Shown: piece by piece, positions 1-36,325 of the stretch
How positions within the stretch are numbered: position 1 is the first letter of the stretch
Layout of the letters: each line of letters starts with the position of its first letter
Source: a virus
Lineage: Duplodnaviria > Heunggongvirae > Uroviricota > Caudoviricetes
IMG/VR virus record: IMGVR_UViG_2711768053_000014
Location: 1 to 36,325 of that record
Reading direction: 5' to 3' (one strand)
DNA: 36,325 bases
The notes under the pieces: model-generated
What the model was told of the DNA's origin: nothing
Seen by the model: the letters and a program-made list of their open reading frames with translations, nothing else
Databases searched by the model: none
Made by a program: the position numbers and the translations under genes

Positions 1-707
1 ACTCTGAATAGCTTGGTGTTTAGGCGCTTTTTTGCGCGCTTATTCAGGAATCTGATGTAGCGATACTGATTAAATTTGTGTACCACGGCCCGCTCCTTAT
101 TAGCCCGTAAATACTCGCCTCGTTGTCCTCCGCGCTTAATCGCGTTCATCGTTATCTCGTGATACCACTCGCCGTCCAGTTCGTAGAACTTGCTTTCGTG
201 GCTGCCTATAAAATCAAAATTCGACGCCTGATATACCACGCCAGCACGTCCGCAGCGTTCGTCTGCAAAGGACTGAACCCACTCCACTGACGGGTACAGT
301 AACCTGATGGTTTTCAGCGCGTAGCTGATGGCCCGTGATTCAGAGTTGCGGGGCATGTCGTCGTGTAGCCACATGCGGTTCAGTTCCATATAGCCCCGGT
401 TATCCGTTTCAAGCACGACCCGACGCCCTGAGTTGGGGTTAAGGGCATATCCCCACTGAAGAACGCCAACCAGATCACGTCCGCTGAATACGCCCAGATG
501 CAGGTAGGAGTTATTCACAAAACGGCGGGAATAGTGCTTTGTCTGAATGATTGTGCGGGCCAGCCAGCAGGATATGGTTTCAACGCGCAGCTCCTTTGAA
601 CCATAGCCGACAATCCGGTCTTCATACTCAATAACGCAGGGTTTTGTCAGAATGCGTGATTTCTTCTCTTTTCCCACAATACAGCTCCGTGGGATGCTCT
701 TTGGCAT
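1..707 (-). CDS. mom: DNA modification protein Mom (partial, C-terminus beyond window start)
   Basis: Open frame with no stop from the ATG at 707 to the window edge (not in ORF track because no stop in window); translation ...[51 protein letters not shown]... reads as Mu Mom; overlaps the 3-prime end of com in another frame as in Mu. Exact start uncertain (ATG at 707 or a downstream alternative start). Confidence 0.8.
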
Positions 708-813
708 TCGATATGACAATGTAACGTTTACAGCGAGGGCATTTAATTTCTATATGCTTAAAACCTCCTTTAAACAGTAATTTATTGCAGTTTTTACAGC
801 GAACAGAGTCCAT
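628..813 (-). CDS. com: Com, zinc-finger translational activator of mom
   Basis: ORF track 628..840; CxxC...CxxC motif ([10 protein letters not shown]...IKCPRCKRY) and close resemblance to Mu Com; the second in-frame ATG (813) has an AGGGGGA Shine-Dalgarno and gives 61 aa, close to the ~62 aa I recall for Mu Com; sits directly upstream of and overlapping mom. Confidence 0.8.
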
Positions 814-840
814 GATTCCCCCTGTGTAATAATCAGACAT

Positions 841-936
841 GAGCGCCCGGAGGGCTGGGGGTATTTAATCACAACCGATGCAAACCGACGATCGATATGA
901 TGCTATCGATCGTCATAAACTATACAAACTGATTAT
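841..936 (-). promoter_or_regulatory. Candidate mom-operon promoter/regulatory region with Dam-site inverted repeat
   Basis: Intergenic between the chaperone stop (937) and com; perfect 11-bp inverted repeat GACGATCGATA-(6 nt)-TATCGATCGTC at ~887..914 holding two GATC sites. Mu's mom promoter is regulated through upstream GATC methylation (established knowledge); assignment here is by position and motif only. Confidence 0.5.
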
Positions 937-1512
937 TTAATCACCGACAGTTAACGCTCTCACCTCGTCCAGTATGGACAGCCGGGAAAGCTGCTCCTTC
1001 ATTTCACGCTGGCGCTGATAAATCCCGTCATTGCGATCGAGCTGCGCCTGCGCCATTGCTACCGCCAGTTCTTCCAGTTCCGACATTGACAGTTTCACCT
1101 GTTGATTATTGGCGTCACCCCACGCAAGGGCGGTTCTTGCCGTATCGGATTTCGCCGCCATTACTACCGGATAAAGACGGGCCAGTGAGTCGGGGCCAGC
1201 ATTCCAGGGGCGGCCGTTCCATTCGAACGTGAACGGCTGCGCCTCCTGTTCTGTGCGCCACGCCTCGATTTCCATCTTTTTGGCATCTTTTGCCGCTGCG
1301 ATAAGTTCAGGCGTGACTGTAAACGGGGCGATTTCACCCCATTTGCCGCTCTGTAACTCTTCCCAGATGCGCTGGCCTGTCATTGCGGTATCATCCTGCA
1401 TGGCGGTATACGGGACGAATTCCGTTTCACCTTCAAATAACACCTCGCAGTCAACCGCACCATTTTCGAGATAATGGGCATTTCTGATGCCTTTTATCGC
1501 TCTGATTTTCAT
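937..1512 (-). CDS. Putative tail fibre assembly/chaperone protein (by position downstream of fibre gene)
   Basis: 191-aa ORF immediately downstream of the 1035-aa fibre gene; no recognisable similarity to lambda Tfa from memory, so the call rests on synteny. Confidence 0.4.
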   Translation of the reverse strand: MKIRAIKGIRNAHYLENGAVDCEVLFEGETEFVPYTAMQDDTAMTGQRIWEELQSGKWGEIAPFTVTPELIAAAKDAKKMEIEAWRTEQEAQPFTFEWNGRPWNAGPDSLARLYPVVMAAKSDTARTALAWGDANNQQVKLSMSELEELAVAMAQAQLDRNDGIYQRQREMKEQLSRLSILDEVRALTVGD

Positions 1513-1526
1513 GTCTTATTTCCCCG

Positions 1527-4500
1527 TTACTCGATACGCACAAAAAGACCAATATAGCCACGTTTTGTATCGTGATTACTGCGTGACCCCGAAAGCGCCA
1601 TATAACGACCGGGAAAGTTGTATGCACTGGCACCACCAATTGCCACTTGCGGTGTGGATACGTATGTCCCTGTATCGCTAACTGAAGCACTCATAGCCAG
1701 AGGGCCAAGACGGGAACCCGGCACAATATCACCGAGTCCCAGAGACACATCAGCACCAAAACTTTCCCCCTGATATGCCGCCATAACCGGCACACCAACT
1801 GCCGGATATTTGTAATATGAGCCTGAGCCTGCTGTCCGGGAGAGTAAGAACGCCAGCGAATCGCCGTCGTAAATGACAGGGCTTACTGTTGCATTCCAGT
1901 TGTTTCCACTCCAGCGGTAAGTCAGGCGATGAATGCTGTGTTCGCCTTCGTAATACTGGTTAAAACACAGCAACGTTTTGAATTTACGCGTTGTGTCCGA
2001 TTCATCGTTATCAAAGGGCGACCACATCACATCAATGATGCCGTTAAATTTCGTGGTGCCAGCCAGCAGCGTGGAAGAGTCCGCAATACTGACCGCATAA
2101 CGCCCCGGGGTGGCCTCTTTCAGCCATTCAGCAAAATCAGCCTGTCCGGTAAATGTCAGGGCGTCGGTGCTGGCAAATGCCTGACCGAATCCGTACATGC
2201 CGGACAGTGCCAGTCTGCCCGGCGTGCGGTCGCGGATATCGCTCTGGGGTTCCATCGTAGCAGCCGCTTTCAGTTCAAGCTCCGTGCGCATGGCTTCAGG
2301 TGTGTCCAGTGCCAGTAATGCGCGGGCTTTTTCTGACAACTGCGCCAGTAAAATCCTGCCATCTGCACTGAAATAAGGCAGTGTATTTTCTTCCGGTGTT
2401 ATCTGGCTGACAGCCGTTAACACGTCATTAAGCGGCTGTTTACCTGCCAGTGCATTAGTGACGGTTGTCGCAAAGTTCGGGTCATTGCCCAGTGCCGATG
2501 CCAGCTCGTTCAGTGTGTCCAGGGCTTCCGGTGATGAGCCAACCAGCGCGGCAAGCAGTTTGCGGACAAACTCCGCATTGGCTATTTCATTACCTGCTGC
2601 ATCATCCGGTGGTGTTGGCGTGGACGGCGTTCCGGTCAGTGCCGGGCTGTTCAGTGGCGCGCGGGTTTCAATCAGTGCCCGGAGTGAAGCCTCGTTGACT
2701 TTCAGGTTTTCCCAGCCAACCAGATAACCATCTCCGGTAGTCCAGTAGCGATTGTAATAAATATGGCCGTTAATACCGTAAAAAATAATGATTTTGGCCA
2801 CATATGCCGGATTGGGATTGGGTTGAGATTCCGGCCAGATAATTTCAACGGTACCCTTGAACAGCACGCCCTGTATTACCGCATTTGTATCTGCATAAAC
2901 GGCATAGCGTCCGGGTTTTGCCGTTTTTACCCAGCGGAGAAAATCGGCCTCTGTTTTAAACTCGGTCCTGTCGCCGCTGGAAAATACTTTCCCGAATCCA
3001 AACATGCCGGGAATCGCCAGTCGACCTTCGGTGCGGTCGTAAATATTCTCCTGTGCATCCTTCTGTGCTGCATTGCCAAGTTGTAGCGTCAGATTCGTCC
3101 AGGTGACCGGGGCGGAGATATTATCGCCACGAACGGTCATGAGAATCCGTCCGTCTTTTCCAAAAAACAGAACCAGCTTTGTTGCTGTCTGGCTTGTTTT
3201 GTCGCCCCAGCCATTATCCAGCCAGATAATTTCTGTTATTCCGGTCGTCTCTTCCGTTTGTGTGGAAAAGGTGTAATACCGTCCCGGGTGCAGGTTGTGC
3301 GCAGTTCTGGCTACAGTCGCCATATCGCTGGCAATAATTGAACGCGCTCCGGCGTCCGTCATTCCGTAACCAAATGCACCAGGCAGCGCAACACGGCCTT
3401 CCGAGCTGTCGTAAAGGTCTGTCTGAATGTCCCTTACCGCTGCGCTTTTCAGCTCAAGCTCATTGCGCATGGTTTCCACTGTGGCCTGTGCCAGCAGTGA
3501 CCGGGCTTTTTCTGACAGTGGAGACAGTGAAGCATTTCCGTCCTGATTAAAGCACAGAAGATTATCTGCCCGTTCTTCCAGATTACTGATTGCGGTTAAC
3601 ACGTCACTGAGTGGTTGTTTACCCGCCAGCGCGTTAATGACCGTCGTCGAAAAGTTCGGATCATTGCCCAGCGCAGCTGCCAGCTCGTTCAGTGTGTCCA
3701 GGGTTTCCGGTGACGAGTCAACCAGTGCGGCGAGCAGTTTGCGGACAAATGCCGCGTTCGCTGTTTCCAGACCGGCAGCATCGTCCGGTGGAGTTGGTGT
3801 GGTGGGCGTACCTGTGAACGCCGGACTGTCCAGCGGCGCTTTTGTTTTCGTCTCGTCCATGACGGTTTTAACAGCCTTTGGTGTGGCTGCCAGTTCTTCG
3901 CTGTCGTTGTCTGTATCACTACAGAGTTGCACCAGGCCTTTTTCTGTTGTGGATGCATTGCTTCCCTTCAGGTCATCAACTATCCGTTGCGCCTCGTCCC
4001 TGTGCTGTTTCGCGTTCTGTTCGCTTTTTGCTGCCGCTTCGGCGCTGGCTTTTGCCTCGCCGGTCAGCGTTGCGGCATCAGCAAGTTTATCGACCGCTTT
4101 CTGGACTATCTTATCGGCATCTTTGACCGCCTGTTCTGCCCGGGCGGCATTCTGGTTTGTTTCAGAGGCCAGCTCTTCAGCTTTCTGCACATTACCCGCA
4201 ATTTCTTCTGCATCCTGCCGTATTTCCCCTGCGAGGGTTTCTGTATCCTGGCGGGCCTGTTCAGCAGCGTCCGCGTGCTCTCCGGCTTTTTCTGCGCTTT
4301 GCTGCGCCTGTTGCGCCAGTTCCTCGAATTTCTTCAGGGCTTCCGGGCGCAGGTCAATATCGGTTGCGCCCAGAAAATCATTCAGCGAACCATCCGCTGA
4401 ATCTTCATAAACGCGGATGACACCGATTTCTGAAAGGCGCTGTGTGCTTTGTGTCAGGCGAACGCTGTACACACCCGGCAGAACGGGGAAGTCATATTCC

Positions 4501-4634
4501 CCGTTCTGTGTGGTGACATGGCTGAAAACACTTTTCAGAATCCCTGCACGGTTGTGCAGGGAGGTCAGTGTAATGGTTGCGCCGCCCAGCGGTTCTCCCG
4601 TGGGCGTTTTAATCACACCTTTAAGCTGCGGCAT
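1527..4634 (-). CDS. Side-tail-fibre-like protein (lambda Stf family), 1035 aa, with internal duplication
   Basis: N-terminus (...IRVYEDSADGSLNDFL...) and the collar block (KGLVQLCSDTDNDSEELAATPKAVKTVMDETKTKAPLDSPAFTGTP...LDTLNELAAALGNDPNFSTTVINALAGKQP) resemble lambda Stf as I recall it; the collar block occurs twice in the protein (about aa 255-345 and 630-715). Confidence 0.8.
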   Translation of the reverse strand: MPQLKGVIKTPTGEPLGGATITLTSLHNRAGILKSVFSHVTTQNGEYDFPVLPGVYSVRLTQSTQRLSEIGVIRVYEDSADGSLNDFLGATDIDLRPEALKKFEELAQQAQQSAEKAGEHADAAEQARQDTETLAGEIRQDAEEIAGNVQKAEELASETNQNAARAEQAVKDADKIVQKAVDKLADAATLTGEAKASAEAAAKSEQNAKQHRDEAQRIVDDLKGSNASTTEKGLVQLCSDTDNDSEELAATPKAVKTVMDETKTKAPLDSPAFTGTPTTPTPPDDAAGLETANAAFVRKLLAALVDSSPETLDTLNELAAALGNDPNFSTTVINALAGKQPLSDVLTAISNLEERADNLLCFNQDGNASLSPLSEKARSLLAQATVETMRNELELKSAAVRDIQTDLYDSSEGRVALPGAFGYGMTDAGARSIIASDMATVARTAHNLHPGRYYTFSTQTEETTGITEIIWLDNGWGDKTSQTATKLVLFFGKDGRILMTVRGDNISAPVTWTNLTLQLGNAAQKDAQENIYDRTEGRLAIPGMFGFGKVFSSGDRTEFKTEADFLRWVKTAKPGRYAVYADTNAVIQGVLFKGTVEIIWPESQPNPNPAYVAKIIIFYGINGHIYYNRYWTTGDGYLVGWENLKVNEASLRALIETRAPLNSPALTGTPSTPTPPDDAAGNEIANAEFVRKLLAALVGSSPEALDTLNELASALGNDPNFATTVTNALAGKQPLNDVLTAVSQITPEENTLPYFSADGRILLAQLSEKARALLALDTPEAMRTELELKAAATMEPQSDIRDRTPGRLALSGMYGFGQAFASTDALTFTGQADFAEWLKEATPGRYAVSIADSSTLLAGTTKFNGIIDVMWSPFDNDESDTTRKFKTLLCFNQYYEGEHSIHRLTYRWSGNNWNATVSPVIYDGDSLAFLLSRTAGSGSYYKYPAVGVPVMAAYQGESFGADVSLGLGDIVPGSRLGPLAMSASVSDTGTYVSTPQVAIGGASAYNFPGRYMALSGSRSNHDTKRGYIGLFVRIE
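2400..2680. repeat. Intragenic direct repeat copy A (~270 bp) within the Stf-like gene
   Basis: About 85-90% identical by eye to 3585..3860; both encode the APL(D/N)SPA(F/L)TGTP...NELA(A/S)ALGNDPNF...ALAGKQP segment; the paired plus-strand artefact ORFs 2458..2727 and 3637..4410 start with near-identical peptides. Confidence 0.7.
3585..3860. repeat. Intragenic direct repeat copy B (~270 bp) within the Stf-like gene
   Basis: See copy A (2400..2680). Confidence 0.7.
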
Positions 4635-5187
4635 CGGGACGCTCCGGCCAGTTGATGGAGTAAAAGGAGGCTTCGTCAGTAACGGTGCTTAAATCCAGTG
4701 CCTTTACCGCTTTGATATATGCCATCCACTGCGTAAGACGGGCTTTATCATCGTCGCTGATGGTGCCCAGCTCCAGCTCGGTTTTCCAGTCGGAGGTGAT
4801 GTCCTTCGCTTCATTCAGCATGCTCTGGCGTTTTTTTTCTGCCAGTCGCGAGTAATCAACAGGAACCGGCAGCACTTCGCCGTCTTTGTAATACCAGCAG
4901 GCTTCAATGCCAAAACCTTCCGGCAGTTCATCCACTTCCACAATGGTGAAGCCAGCCGGATAAAGACGGGACACGTCTTCCGCCATTGAATAAATCACGC
5001 CGCTTTCAGGGTGAATACACAATTTGTATTTCTTCGTGAATTTATCCAGTGATTCATAAAAATCCTGTCCGTCTTCACTGCGGAAATACTGAATATCCTT
5101 ACCATAAGGCATATTTTCCGGGTAATAACGCGTGACGTTTCTGAGTTCCATTATTTTCTCCTTAATTAACCTGATACGGTGCGCCAT
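4621..5187 (-). CDS. Tail fibre assembly protein (Tfa / Mu U-like)
   Basis: 188-aa ORF directly after a fibre gene, with a Tfa-like C-terminal region (...DKARLTQWMAYIKAVKALDLSTV...WPERP); true start may be the internal Met at ~5151 just after the upstream stop. Confidence 0.7.
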   Translation of the reverse strand: MAHRIRLIKEKIMELRNVTRYYPENMPYGKDIQYFRSEDGQDFYESLDKFTKKYKLCIHPESGVIYSMAEDVSRLYPAGFTIVEVDELPEGFGIEACWYYKDGEVLPVPVDYSRLAEKKRQSMLNEAKDITSDWKTELELGTISDDDKARLTQWMAYIKAVKALDLSTVTDEASFYSINWPERPDAAA

Positions 5188-5975
5188 GAACCATTGATAT
5201 AAATCTGCGCGGATTTGTAATACACACCACCGATGTTATCCGCCGAACTTCTCCCCGTATCCTGGACATAAATTCCTGACAACTGACAGCCGGAAGGCGC
5301 GCGAAACGTCCAGGTGATTTCGTTGCCACCGGGATTGTGAAACACCTCATTGGTGTACTGAAAATTACGCACAGCGCCGGAATCTGTGGTGTTGATGGTG
5401 ATATCGCTGGTGCCATCAAACAGCACATTGTTAATCCTGCGGGCCGTCTGAAGCCGGGTTGCCGTTCCGGCGTTGCCACTGATGTTGCTGATGGTGATAT
5501 CCGAAGACAGGGCCATGCCGTTGACCCTGCGGGTATTCGGTACAGCACTATTAGCTTTATTTACCGTGTCACGTAATAAAAGCGCGTCGATAATTTCACC
5601 GGCTGTGTTTTTCCCGAGAATACCGCGCACAAAAGCACTGAGCGGCGTTAATGCCATTGTGTCTTCGCCGGTAAAGTACGGGAATGTATTATTCTGACCG
5701 GTTAATCCGGCAATAGCACTGGCTGAACCACTGTTCGTAATAAACAGTTTTTTCAGCGCCGTCATAATCTGGTTGGTGGTATTTTTATCCGGTTTGATAT
5801 TTGCCTGCCGGAGAATTTCCAGCAGTTCAGACTGAATAATATTAAACCAGTCCGGCCCCGGATAAGTGGGCGGAATACCATTCCCGCCTTCGGTGAAATA
5901 AAGCGTTGTTTTGCTTAATTCAGCCGCGACAGGTGGCATTACCGGCACACCCGTCGGATTATCCACATGAAACAT
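5166..5975 (-). CDS. Tail fibre protein (short, Mu S-like position)
   Basis: 269-aa ORF between the baseplate genes and a Tfa-type chaperone; Ser/Thr/Gly/Asn-rich fibre-like composition (...DITISNISGNAGTATRLQTARRINNVLFDGTSDITINTTDSG...). Confidence 0.6.
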   Translation of the reverse strand: MFHVDNPTGVPVMPPVAAELSKTTLYFTEGGNGIPPTYPGPDWFNIIQSELLEILRQANIKPDKNTTNQIMTALKKLFITNSGSASAIAGLTGQNNTFPYFTGEDTMALTPLSAFVRGILGKNTAGEIIDALLLRDTVNKANSAVPNTRRVNGMALSSDITISNISGNAGTATRLQTARRINNVLFDGTSDITINTTDSGAVRNFQYTNEVFHNPGGNEITWTFRAPSGCQLSGIYVQDTGRSSADNIGGVYYKSAQIYINGSWRTVSG

Positions 5976-31283: not shown

Positions 31284-32222
31284 TTACGTGCGCAGCAGGG
31301 TTGAAATATCAACATCCAGGTCTAATTCACGGAAAGCCTGACGCAGATAATCTTCATTAACACGTTCACCTTTGCCGTGGGCGGTCATGGCAGCAAGGCG
31401 CAGCGAGTGGTTCAGGATGCGAAGCGCACCTGGTTTTTGCGCAATCTGCTGTAATAATTCCCGTTCGTTTTCGCCGGTAATTTGCCAGGCATCCGCAATG
31501 GCTTTTACATCATCAATTTTGGTTTTATTGATTGCCGTCCGTTTTGCAATACGGGAAAACAGGCGGGCAAACTCAACCGTTCTGTTACCACCGGTCATGT
31601 TTGAATAAACACGGTGATTCCCCATCAGAACAAGACCAATACGGGCGGATTCCTGTAACAGGCGGAGTTCTTCCAGAACCTCAGCGCCAAGATGATCAGC
31701 TTCATCGATAATGACCAGCCCCTGCGTACCTTCAAGACGGCGTCTCAAAGCGCGGGAGAGTGGCCCCTTACGGCGCGGTGCGTCATTCATTCCCAGTTCA
31801 TAAGCCAGTTCAGTCAGGCATTCCAGAACACTGGCACAGGATGGGGTAATGGTGATCATCCAGACATTGTTATTGGTACGACGAAATTCGCGGGCCGCTT
31901 CAGTTTTTCCCACACCTGGATTACCGCAGATAACAGAAATACTTTCAGTCAGGCTGGCAAAACGCATACTCGTCCAGATTTGGCGTGCTGTTCTGGTTTC
32001 CACAAAACGCGGGGGTTCTGGCAGCTCTGCGGCGCGGTGATAGTTCTCCAGCCAGCGTTCCAGCGTCTGCGCGACACGGTCATTGTCGCCGTTGTACTTG
32101 TTATTCACGAATGCGCTTAACGTTCCTGCGGCCACGCCGGACTCGCGGGCAATTTGTGCATAAGTTGTTTTTTCACTTTCTACAAGCGTGCGCAGTCCTG
32201 CGCGAATATCGGAAATATTCAT
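31284..32222 (-). CDS. B: Transposition protein B (ATP-dependent target DNA activator)
   Basis: 312-aa [28 protein letters not shown]... with a Walker A motif ([12 protein letters not shown]); near-identical to MuB as I recall it; directly downstream of A. Confidence 0.9.
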
Positions 32223-32260
32223 CTGAATAACCTCGTAATTAAATTTTGTTTAAACGTTAA

Positions 32261-34249
32261 TTAAATGGCTCTTTTACGTCTGTTCTGTTCCAGAATATCC
32301 AGCGAATGATTCAGATATTCATCACGATCAGTTTCATATTCATCATCGGGTTCCTGGTATTTCACCTGCACCGTGTTACCGGAAGGCCGGAAAATACCAA
32401 CAACCCTTGATTCTGGTGCTGCTGGTTCGGCTATCTGCGGCAGCAGTTCAGCAACTTCCAGCGCGTCCATTTGTTTCTGCGCCTTAATGGCTGCTTTAGT
32501 TGCAGATTTCAGTTGTTTCTGGCGGCGGCGATATTCACGGCCTGCCGCAGCATCATTAAACGCAACAGGTGCCAGACATTCCGCTTCACAGATAAACCGA
32601 CCGTCCAGGGTGTAGCAATAAACCGTGCTGTGTAACTGCTGTGGATCAAACCTGACCACAACTTTTTTCACGCCGGCATTCATTAACGCCATGTTGTAAT
32701 AAACGTTTTTTGCGCCTTTAAGGGAGCCGCCAACTTTAAGCGTAAACTCGCCTTTGCGTGAAACGTTCACCGCCTCGGCAGGCAGCAACAGCATCCGTTT
32801 TTGCTCTTCGGTTGGCTTACGCACAATCGTTCTGGCGTATTCACGTTCGAAAACATCATCAAACGAAAGTTTGCCCCCGCACATTTCTGTTTCTCGGCCT
32901 GTTCTGGCATTGAACATCGCCACACCTTCGGCAAGGGTTTTCAGAAACAGCTCTGCATCAACAGCACGGTCGCCATAGTTATCAGGTTTTGCCTGCGGAT
33001 TTGGCCCCGTATATGCGCCAGCCAGTGCCGGATGCTTATCAACGTATTCCTCAAGCCCACCAACACCGAAAGCACGTTCAACAGGTTTTGCCTGGCCCCA
33101 GCCTTTACCGGCAACAACGCTTGTCCAGTGCATTTTCGCCCCCATCAGTAAAAACAGTCCTTTTGGATCGTCCTCTTTTACCTTAAAGCGGTAGCGATTG
33201 GGCGCGCCTCCCGTCAGCCATTTATTCGCTGCGCCACGGGTGTTATCAATGGTGATGTGAAAATCCTCCGGGATACCGTAGCGAGTCACAACATCCATGA
33301 ACGAGAGGCGAATTGAATCAATGTTCTCGCTCACATCGCAGCGCCAGCCCAGAATTTTTCGGGTTTTCACATCCTGCCAGAACCATGTTTTCGGGCGGAT
33401 CACATCACCGTTAAACCAGCGTACAAAGACGTTATGCAGATAACCGTCGCCGTTGATCCACTGCATGGCGTCCAGGTGTTCCACAGTTCGCTGCTGTGCC
33501 GGTATCAGATGCATCAGTGCATGTTCACCTTCACGACAGGCAACAACCATTGCCTCGTCCAGTTGCTGAATCCGGCGAAAGGCGGTGGCACGGGAGGGAA
33601 TACTCCAGCCATGCTCGCGGGCTGCCAGTTCCAGACGCTCATAACATTTGCGGAAGGCGGGTTTTTCCGGTCGCAGATAATCTGCAATCAGAAACTGCCA
33701 GGCATCCTCGTCAAATTCACTTTTGTGAACATTGCGACGGGATGCACCACGTCCATCAACAAGCGCAGCCGCCCAGTCAGGCTTCGCAAACTTCTGTACC
33801 TGGTAATACTTGTCCCGCAAAGTGGATGCGCTGACCTGGTAATGTCCTGCAACGGTCGCAAAAGCCGTTTTCGTTGAAATCCCCTGGTTCAGCATTTCGT
33901 CTGCAGCCTGAACCGCAGGCAACCATTTTTCAGCAAGTCTGCGCTGAGAATCGCTGGCTTTATCCCATTTGCTCCACAGCACCTCACGATCATAATCATG
34001 GGCTTCCAGCGTGGGGCGGGCGATTTCAAAACGCCCCTGGCTTGTTTCAATTCCCCCTTGTTGGATCAAAAACTCAGCTCGGGCAGAGTTAGGAAGAGAA
34101 GATATATGGTATTCATAAGCAACCCCTTTAATTCCTTCTCTTCTTCTCTTGAGCCATCCTTCTCTCTGTGCCCTTTTGTGAATCCCCATTAATGAACCAG
34201 GTAAACCAGATAAACCCGCACACTCAATTGCTGATATCCACTCTCTCAT
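32261..34249 (-). CDS. A: DDE transposase A (MuA)
   Basis: 662-aa ORF; N-terminal DNA-binding domain similar to the repressor N-terminus, with the central and C-terminal regions reading as Mu A from memory; follows ner. Confidence 0.95.
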
Positions 34250-34460
34250 TGTGATCCCTTAGATATCTACTAGGCCAAATTTCTTCAGGTTTCATGTTTA
34301 AGGCATCAGCAATGATACGTTCACCTTTGGGCCATGGCCTGACTAATGCATTTGCGAGTGTCCCGGTTGAATAACCCGAACGTCTGGACAGTTTTGCCAG
34401 AGGGATTCCTGTTTTTTTGAGGGCCGCAATCACGTCAGCCCGATGCCAATCGTTACTCAT
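34224..34460 (-). CDS. ner: Ner-like DNA-binding protein (negative regulator of early transcription)
   Basis: 78-aa ORF ...[12 protein letters not shown]...TLANAL...WPKGE.IIA.AL...[10 protein letters not shown] resembles Mu Ner; first gene of the early operon, upstream of A. Confidence 0.85.
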
Positions 34461-34640
34461 CTTTCACACATCAACCATATTGCGTATGATAAAGGGTTAT
34501 CAAAACAGATAATCTGTCTTGATTATCTGTTTTATACATTGTCACATAAACCAAATAAACTCAACCAGTTTATATGAGTTGATGTGATTTATTTTGTAAC
34601 ACTTTGATTTATATACATATAATTTTGGTAAACTTAGTTT
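34461..34640. promoter_or_regulatory. Divergent early/repressor promoter-operator region (candidate Pe/Pc, operators, transposition enhancer)
   Basis: AT-rich 180-bp gap between divergent ner and c; palindrome AAACAGATAATC-(6 nt)-GATTATCTGTTT at ~34503..34532; about 0.95 kb from the left end, where Mu has its operator/enhancer. Confidence 0.55.
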
Positions 34641-35150
34641 ATGAAAAGTTCAAGAGAGATAAACCAGTGGATGACGCCCAAGCAAATTACTGAACTGGAC
34701 GGAATGCCAGGAACAATACAAGGCGTGCACAAACGAGCGAAGAAAGAAGGATGGCCTAAGCGTTCGCAAGAAGGGCGTCGTGGGCCTGGGGTTGAGTATC
34801 TCCCGGTAATACCAGCTATGCAGGGAACGTCTATCGAAGAAATGAATGCTGATACATTGAAGATGTTCTCCATATTAATCAATAAATTAGGAGAAAATGA
34901 AGTCCGGGAAATAGAGCTGAATATGGCTAAATACGGGCTTTCCGGGTTAATGCATGAACGCCCCCCTATATCTGCTGATACCCTATTGGCAACGTTGGGC
35001 ATTGATCGCCAAACGCTACAAACAGCTTTGGTGCTACATACATTACCCTCAGAAGCTCGCAAAGAGATTTTGTCAAGCTATGGCGTTCATGAACAGGAAG
35101 GTCTTGTAGTTCCTTCACAGGATCCACAAGATGTAAAAAAAGCCGTATAA
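34641..35150 (+). CDS. c: Mu-type repressor c
   Basis: 169-aa ORF; N-terminus (...GMPGTIQGVHKRAKKEGWPKR...) parallels the transposase N-terminal DNA-binding domain and the C-terminus (EILSSYGVHEQEGLVVPSQDPQDVKKAV) closely matches the Mu repressor as I recall it; divergent from ner at the left end. Confidence 0.85.
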   Translation: MKSSREINQWMTPKQITELDGMPGTIQGVHKRAKKEGWPKRSQEGRRGPGVEYLPVIPAMQGTSIEEMNADTLKMFSILINKLGENEVREIELNMAKYGLSGLMHERPPISADTLLATLGIDRQTLQTALVLHTLPSEARKEILSSYGVHEQEGLVVPSQDPQDVKKAV

Positions 35151-35299
35151 CAACCAGGAACCTAGCTAAAACACATAATTCCCCTCAAATGGCCCGGATG
35201 GTAAGATACCGAAATGGCAAAAGGTGTTTTTGATATATATCATTTGCCAAAAGCCTGGTTGTTATCGGGTTTGAAGCATTTTTGAAGCTGCAATTGAAA

Positions 35300-35490
35300 T
35301 GATGTGTGAATTAATCGCTTTTCGTATCTTTAATGAAACAAAAGCCATTTCTACCAATCTTTCGCGTTTCAAGGCTTAACGGCTAAAATCTGCTCTACAG
35401 GCTTGCAAGCCCCATCAAATCTAATCCCGTCAAATCCCGAATAATCCAATGTCCTCCCGGTTTTTTTCGTACTTCTTGTGAATCAATACA
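35300..35490 (-). repeat. Mu left-end terminal region with transposase binding sites (L1 and L2/L3-like)
   Basis: Minus-strand terminus TGTATTGATTCACAAGAAGTACGAAAA (L1) at ~35464..35490; internal sites TGTTTCATTAAAGATACGAAAAG (~35321..35345) and TGAAACGCGAAAG (~35363..35377) fit the MuA site pattern TTTCA...CGAAA; host DNA starts at ~35491 (gcagg...). Confidence 0.85.
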
Positions 35491-35578
35491 GCAGGCATTC
35501 GTTGATGGGATTAAAGAAACGCCTTAAATAAGAAGCAGTGATATACTCCCACCAGACTCCCCGGCAGGAAAAAGACAA

Positions 35579-36325
35579 ATGGAACAAGCGCATACCCAGC
35601 TGATTGCCCAACTGAACGAGCGTATTTTAGCGGCGGATAACACGCCGCTTTATATTAAGTTTGCCGAAACGGTAAAAAATGCCGTGCGCAGCGGGGTGCT
35701 GGAGCATGGCAATATTTTGCCCGGTGAGCGTGATTTAAGTCAGTTAACCGGCGTTTCGCGCATTACGGTGCGCAAGGCGATGCAGGCGCTGGAAGAAGAG
35801 GGTGTGGTGACGCGTTCGCGCGGTTACGGCACGCAGATCAACAACATCTTCGAATACTCGTTGAAAGAAGCGCGAGGTTTTTCTCAGCAGGTGGTATTGC
35901 GCGGGAAAAAGCCCGATACGCTATGGGTTAACAAGCGTGTCGTGAAATGTCCCGAAGAAGTCGCGCAGCAGCTGGCGGTCGAAGCAGGAAGTGATGTCTT
36001 TTTGCTTAAGCGTATTCGCTATGTCGATGAAGAAGCGGTATCGATTGAGGAATCGTGGGTTCCGGCGCATTTAATTCATGATGTTGATGCCATCGGGATT
36101 TCACTTTATGACTATTTCCGCAGCCAGCACATTTACCCACAACGTACGCGTTCCCGCGTTAGCGCCCGGATGCCGGATGCCGAGTTTCAGTCACATATTC
36201 AGTTAGATAGCAAAATACCGGTGCTGGTGATCAAGCAAGTGGCGCTTGACCAACAGCAACGGCCTATTGAGTACAGCATTAGCCACTGTCGCAGCGATCT
36301 ATACGTTTTTGTGTGCGAGGAGTAG
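35579..36325 (+). CDS. yegW: GntR/HutC-family transcriptional regulator (host gene), yegW-like
   Basis: 248-aa ORF with an N-terminal GntR-type HTH (...ERDLSQLTGVSRITVRKAMQALEEEGVV...) and a C-terminal effector-binding domain; outside the prophage end; symbol from memory of E. coli YegW (248 aa), not verified. Confidence 0.6.
   Translation: MEQAHTQLIAQLNERILAADNTPLYIKFAETVKNAVRSGVLEHGNILPGERDLSQLTGVSRITVRKAMQALEEEGVVTRSRGYGTQINNIFEYSLKEARGFSQQVVLRGKKPDTLWVNKRVVKCPEEVAQQLAVEAGSDVFLLKRIRYVDEEAVSIEESWVPAHLIHDVDAIGISLYDYFRSQHIYPQRTRSRVSARMPDAEFQSHIQLDSKIPVLVIKQVALDQQQRPIEYSISHCRSDLYVFVCEE

Follow-up and report, generated by a model that had tools for sequence, protein, structure and literature searches.

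The feature found at the right of the DNA analysed here is almost certainly the left-end (attL) junction of a Mu-like transposable prophage, 35,624 bp in its entirety, which has become integrated by Mu-type transposition inside the 3' end of the E. coli gene yegX. By ‘window’ is meant the whole of the DNA stretch analysed, which is 36,325 nt in length. What is gained are exact coordinates, a target duplication, and a total length for a Mu-like prophage, one with an immunity repressor that is not seen among deposited Mu-group phages. The interrupted gene is yegX rather than a promoter, and the value of the observation is mostly that of annotation, the feature as such being an ordinary one.

Prophage ends and target duplication

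The boundary between phage and host DNA can be approached from either of its two sides. From the host side, megablast of positions 35391-35700 (310 bp) yields matches in 5,425 of 5,426 complete E. coli genomes, each starting at query base 101, i.e., at window position 35491, and with host-side identity that is 100% to K-12 along with many other strains. Pairwise alignment with K-12 is perfect rightwards from GCAGG, with similarity gone directly to the left of that pentamer. From the phage side, 35151-35490 was reverse complemented, and alignment then starts at nucleotide 1 both of this sequence and of the genomes of Mu (82% identity over the 340-nt end), D108 (86% over 290 nt), and SfMu (93% over the first 172 nt, which is the closest of these left ends), with E of ~1e-84. 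Phage bases 1-13 and 16-55 are invariant, that is, the same in the window as in Mu and D108. Four other independent insertions, involving phages with an identical repressor and each from a different assembly, furthermore share a common sequence up to ...TCAATACA, which is followed by unrelated host DNA.

The start of the host-side match and the phage-side alignment to nt 1 are independent determinations of the boundary, and they agree on 35490/35491. The last prophage base thus is 35490 (...GAATCAATACA), with E. coli DNA starting at 35491 (GCAGG...). With a slash indicating the junction, here and below, the + strand reads ...TTTTTTTCGTACTTCTTGTGAATCAATACA/GCAGGCATTCG, which also may be written as ...CCGGTTTTTTTCGTACTTCTTGTGAATCAATACA/GCAGGCATTCGTTGATGG. 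The sequence-only reading, which had the prophage ending at approximately 35490 with Mu terminal sequence, is correct to the nucleotide as to this left junction, far beyond chance. As queried by megablast, not one of those 5,426 complete genomes spans the junction, and the insertion is absent from K-12 as well as from all 5,425 of the matching genomes. Scanning for exact patterns, whether that of the left junction or that of the predicted right junction (flexible gap of 0-12 nt), similarly returned 0 matches in viral_contigs, genome_contigs, and metagenome_contigs.

Base 1 of the window falls within mom, at the 3' end of that gene, and the last 134 bp of the prophage right end are outside of the window; the right end of ETEC1732, a related prophage, is TGAAGCGGCGCACGAAAAACGCG and is found ~134 bp beyond the position equivalent to the window start. 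The rest of the element is supplied by contig CXXT01000010.1 (GCA_001268445.1; 472,310 bp), which was identified through exact-protein look-up with the DUF4376 protein and with the repressor, and which is the same as the window wherever the two overlap. Locus L011 of this contig, containing the right side of the prophage, shows 0 mismatches to window positions 1-5512, and locus L017, containing the left side, shows 0 mismatches to positions 31641-36325 (4,685 bp). From this contig comes the full prophage length given above. The right junction in the contig reads ...GGAGGAGTT-GCAGG/TGAAGCGGCGCAC or, in the orientation of the window, ...AATGGCACGGTGGAGGAGTT-GCAGG/TGAAGCGGCGCACGAAAAACGCGAAAACG. 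It had been proposed from the window that gcagg might be a candidate 5-bp target duplication, with the same 5 bp to be sought at the right end, and a matching GCAGG indeed is present there, the contig's right end reading GCAGG/TGAAGCGG. As GCAGG is found at both junctions, and as a single copy in K-12, the 5-bp target duplication is real. Mu displays a target preference of N-Y-G/C-R-N, which is a preference rather than a requirement; GCAGG fits this at positions 2 and 4, its central A does not, and as a target it is unremarkable.

Both ends also carry what would be expected for recognition by a Mu-type transposase. Using YMYNWRAARYRCGAAAR, the Mu transposase-site consensus employed in D108 annotation, only 3 matches are seen over the whole 36-kb window, versus 0.41 expected, all of them on the minus strand and corresponding to L1, L2, and L3 (see the table). 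At the right end, within L011, there are 3 additional site matches, R1-R3, with a direct orientation for R1 as well as R2 and with R3, the innermost, inverted as in the attR of Mu, with 0.07 expected by chance. The termini of the element are 5'-TG...CA-3', i.e., ...ATACA/host at 35490 on the left and host/TGAAGCGG on the right.

How well do these ends belong to a single event? Upon rebuilding of the empty site, i.e., with the prophage and one GCAGG copy removed, the resulting sequence aligns colinearly to that of K-12 across 3,230 bp, differing by 55 substitutions and by 0 indels. Flanks that rejoin colinearly with K-12, along with GCAGG on both sides, point to a single, simple Mu-type transposition. 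One might propose instead that the prophage end is that of a rearranged or defective remnant, resulting from deletion or replicative transposition, and with ends that do not flank one simple target. Such a proposal could be entertained from the window alone, where the right end is not visible. Both ends nevertheless are carried by a single contig of 472 kb, with 35,624 bp separating them and with identical GCAGG pentamers alongside, the flanks lack indels relative to K-12, and the genes A and B are full length. Such a remnant therefore is improbable in the extreme, and indeed can be set aside as excluded given GCAGG at both ends and flanks colinear with K-12. An assembly chimera was excluded as well, the contig being identical to the window, with colinear flanks and with GCAGG at both junctions.

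In Mu transposition, transposase that is bound to L1-L3 along with R1-R3 makes its cuts at the CA-3' termini; joining of these to the target is staggered by 5 bp, and the target pentamer is then duplicated by gap repair. The present prophage, as a simple insertion, transposed in this manner into yegX, inside of its 3' end and following codon 262 (of 272), with GCAGG as the pentamer that was duplicated.

Features of the window, with coordinates in window numbering
Feature	Position	Strand	Basis or remarks
Mu-like prophage body	1-35490	-	c/ner/A/B at high-coordinate end through to com/mom at low end; ORFs and Pfam
DUF4376 protein	937-1512	-	followed directly by com and mom
Tail fibre protein, 1,035 aa	1527-4634	-	phage_tail_N, Phage_fiber_2
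Tail fibre assembly protein	4621-5187	-	Caudo_TAP, Pfam assignment from L011 362-892
B, 312 aa, AAA+ target-capture protein	31284-32222	-	Phage-MuB_C
Transposase A, 662 aa	32261-34249	-	HTH_Tnp_Mu_1/2, DDE_2, Mu-transpos_C
ner	34224-34460	-	HTH_35
Repressor gene c, 169 aa	34641-35150	+	ORF, Pfam HTH_Tnp_Mu_1; toward left end, same direction as yegW
Non-coding left end (attL), 340 nt	35151-35490	-	terminal 5'-TG (...CA-3' on + strand, 35489-35490); alignment from nt 1 of Mu, D108, SfMu
Transposase binding site L3 (phage nt 156-172)	35319-35335	-	1 mismatch to YMYNWRAARYRCGAAAR; D108 annotated site at same position
Transposase binding site L2 (phage nt 116-132)	35359-35375	-	1 mismatch to YMYNWRAARYRCGAAAR
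Transposase binding site L1 (phage nt 11-27)	35464-35480	-	0 mismatches to YMYNWRAARYRCGAAAR; D108 annotated site at same position
5-bp target-site duplication GCAGG, left copy	35491-35495		other copy abuts right end, L011 5651-5647, minus strand; K-12 has a single GCAGG
Severed yegX 3' end	35491-35527	+	last base of codon 261, codons 262-272 (QAFVDGIKETP, then stop), TAA 35525-35527
Native yegX-yegW spacer, 51 nt	35528-35578	+	extended -10-like TGATATACT at 35539-35547; purine-rich stretch before ATG
yegW (ggaR), GntR/HutC-family repressor of yegTUV, intact	35579-36325	+	248/248 residues identical to K-12 b2101; Pfam GntR and UTRA

Relationship to Mu, D108, and SfMu

In its organization the prophage is much like Mu (NC_000929 / AF083977). 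The order c, ner, A, B is the same, L1, L2, and L3 are equally spaced from the end, the non-coding end preceding the c stop codon is 340 nt long here versus 338 nt in Mu, a 5-bp target duplication is involved with both, and the right end, TGAAGCGGCGCACGAAAAACGCGAAA, likewise possesses R1-R3. The annotated transposase-binding sites of D108 (NC_013594), at nt 11-27 and 156-172, are located just as they are here.

These similarities do not extend to the immunity region. The c repressor has 40% identity to that of Mu and 30% to that of D108, with a conserved C-terminal tail (...VVPSQDPQDVKKAV) nonetheless retained, and the immunity regions of SfMu (NC_027382) and D108 both differ from that of this prophage. 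By high-identity (megablast) search, as applied to 25 kb of the prophage, only ~18% matches Mu (at ~91% identity) and only ~18-19% matches SfMu or D108 (at ~90-91%), with the matching DNA consisting of the A/B/gam region. A gin invertase or invertible G segment, both of which Mu has, is absent between the tail-fibre genes and com/mom (window 1-5187; L011 1-5531). The genes for the tail fibre, tail fibre assembly, and DUF4376 proteins lead directly to com and mom, making for a host-range module that is unlike that of Mu. Given the differing immunity region, the limited DNA similarity at the megablast level, and the missing G segment, this is not a member of the species Muvirus mu. The description of the junction as a ‘Mu left end’ therefore holds in the sense of the left end of a Mu-type prophage, and not in the sense of phage Mu itself, as indicated by both the 40% repressor identity and the ~18% megablast match.

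Relatives of this prophage are found at other host loci as well. The identical repressor protein is encoded by prophages at at least 5 chromosomal sites, in different assemblies, and phages with an identical repressor or DUF4376 protein adjoin rplI, cysQ, dnaK, pspF, upp, gcvP, and other loci, with identical termini. The presence of an identical repressor at that many sites, across different assemblies, suggests that it represents a distinct, circulating immunity type. As judged from sequence, the sequence-testable hallmarks of a Mu-type prophage end are all present: TG/CA termini, L1-L3 along with R1-R3, a 5-bp duplication, the c-ner-A-B gene order, and many insertion sites.

Two smaller observations pertain to these ends. 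A perfect 11-bp inverted repeat, TAACAACCAGG / CCTGGTTGTTA, is found at 35148-35158 / 35254-35264, bracketing the first ~100 nt past the c stop codon, with both arms residing within blocks for which conservation with Mu and D108 is for the most part retained. In the mRNA for the repressor this repeat may form a 3' structure, though folding of the region overall does not exceed that of shuffled sequence in stability. In addition, a relative in E. coli STEC388 (L002 1387-1470) has a mom/com region that is 97% identical to the one here, yet beyond mom has ...GCGCGCGAAATTATTTGATACCG... in place of the right end TGAAGCGGCGCAC. That divergent end abuts a truncated DUF945 gene, and what is seen in STEC388 may be either a different type of end or a rearranged prophage.

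Interruption of yegX and the DNA upstream of yegW

By K-12 annotation, yegX, which encodes a GH25 glycoside hydrolase, has 37 nt of its coding sequence left at the point where the host match starts, and is separated from yegW by a spacer of 51 bp. The neighbouring genes are those of K-12, i.e., thiM, thiD, and yegX upstream and yegV and yegU downstream (encoding PfkB and ADP_ribosyl_GH domains, respectively, in that order from yegW). Past the junction the host flank matches K-12 with 100% identity, and YegW is identical at 248 of 248 residues. In K-12 coordinates (NC_000913.3, minus strand) the insertion would fall at 2182869/2182870. K-12 does not possess the insertion, whereas here yegX is split within its coding sequence following codon 262 of 272. 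The yegX reading frame of the lysogen continues into the phage right end, giving 306 aa, with the last 10 residues replaced by 44 that are phage encoded. The GH25 Pfam domain of YegX (residues 70-245) remains intact in this predicted fusion. As the target is found inside of the yegX coding sequence, an altered YegX C-terminus is the most certain consequence of the insertion.

For yegW, the ATG (35579) is found 88 bp past the junction (35491). The sequence-only reading had given ~90 bp to the start of a ‘yegW-like’ regulator, and comparison with the uninterrupted locus of K-12 does place the insertion close to such a gene, which is yegW itself. That gene retains 88 bp of native upstream DNA, with 35.6 kb now found between it and yegX along with the yegX promoter. 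The spacer between thiD and yegX has been reported to harbour a constitutive sigma-70 promoter (PMC3946193). GgaR, as YegW now is called, has a single target and represses the accumulation of glycogen. It is present at ~10 molecules per cell, and its binding by ChIP-chip was seen only upstream of yegTUV, i.e., of yegT (PMC10819704).

A promoter and terminator scan of 35151-35578 turned up no canonical two-hexamer sigma-70 promoter and no terminator-like site. An extended -10-like element, TGATATACT, was found in the spacer by eye along with regular-expression search. A core promoter with its start site within the last ~50 bp before the ATG, such as one employing this element, would be retained by the lysogen; with a start just downstream of TGATATACT, the insertion would fall near -64 and the core promoter would be undisturbed. 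The accessible start-site and transcript-boundary literature and supplements yielded no mapped start for yegW, and one start-site table has rows for yegX and for yegT and none for yegW, which on its own is uninformative.

It had been suggested that the insertion is located within the promoter/operator region of yegW, with loss of upstream regulatory DNA perhaps altering that gene's expression. The junction in fact is only 88 bp from the ATG, everything beyond about -64 of any start near 35554 has been displaced, and, with the kept 88 bp having no canonical two-hexamer promoter, the native promoter may lie further upstream. The target, however, is yegX coding sequence, 37 nt from its end, rather than dedicated regulatory DNA, and both the extended -10-like element and the whole of the -35 zone are found downstream of the insertion point. 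Nor does the idea of an operator upstream of yegW find support, as published GgaR sites are only upstream of yegT (ChIP-chip) and no autoregulatory operator is known (PMC10819704). Damage to a yegW promoter/operator region thus is unlikely, though still to be kept in mind.

With the insertion viewed instead as one into yegX, what is certainly lost to yegW is transcription arriving from yegX or from upstream of yegX. A terminator-like site is not predicted to follow the yegX stop codon ahead of yegW, such that a portion of yegW transcription may ordinarily originate with yegX. Such yegX-yegW co-transcription, if it is normal, would be lost upon insertion, there being no terminator predicted within the 51-bp spacer, and yegW expression would then depend on a weak promoter in what is kept of the spacer (TGATATACT).

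Read-through from the phage c gene, with no predicted intrinsic terminator intervening, is a possible further source of yegW transcription. A stronger version of this idea is that transcription of c reads out through the left end, driving or boosting yegW/ggaR in the lysogen, and thereby rewiring a host regulator. The c gene (34641-35150) is oriented like yegW, and no intrinsic terminator-like site is predicted over the 428 nt between them (35151-35578). RNA folding of 35130-35600 is no more stable than that of shuffled sequence (z = -0.6), on which basis a structured RNA element or terminator at those positions was rejected. With neither a predicted intrinsic terminator nor unusual RNA structure following c, read-through would be possible. 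Long untranslated RNA, on the other hand, is a good substrate for Rho-dependent termination, and the 428 nt following c, being untranslated, could allow such termination to block read-through. A search of the literature for read-through out of the Mu left end found nothing specific. The argument for read-out is by inference only, and ~10 molecules per cell are what is normal for GgaR (PMC10819704). Rewiring by way of c thus is decidedly unlikely.

More speculative still is a consequence for the host's metabolism. Being of very low abundance and with a single target, GgaR is a regulator for which loss of upstream transcription could change the metabolic phenotype of a lineage. Such a change would be unsurprising since Mu-type phages can insert almost anywhere. 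It would be possible for the prophage to alter GgaR levels, whether via read-out of a constitutively transcribed c into ggaR or instead via loss of yegX-driven transcription, with changes in yegTUV repression and in glycogen accumulation resulting, but such an outcome is very improbable. If true, then this would be lysogenic conversion through transcriptional read-out or polarity.

As to the limits of the window itself, the sequence begins 134 bp inside of the prophage right end and stops exactly on the yegW stop codon (36325), at either side a short way before sequence that would be informative. In K-12, yegW and the convergent yegV overlap at their 3' ends by 27 nt, and it is within that overlap that the window ends (36299-36325; L001 3309-3335).
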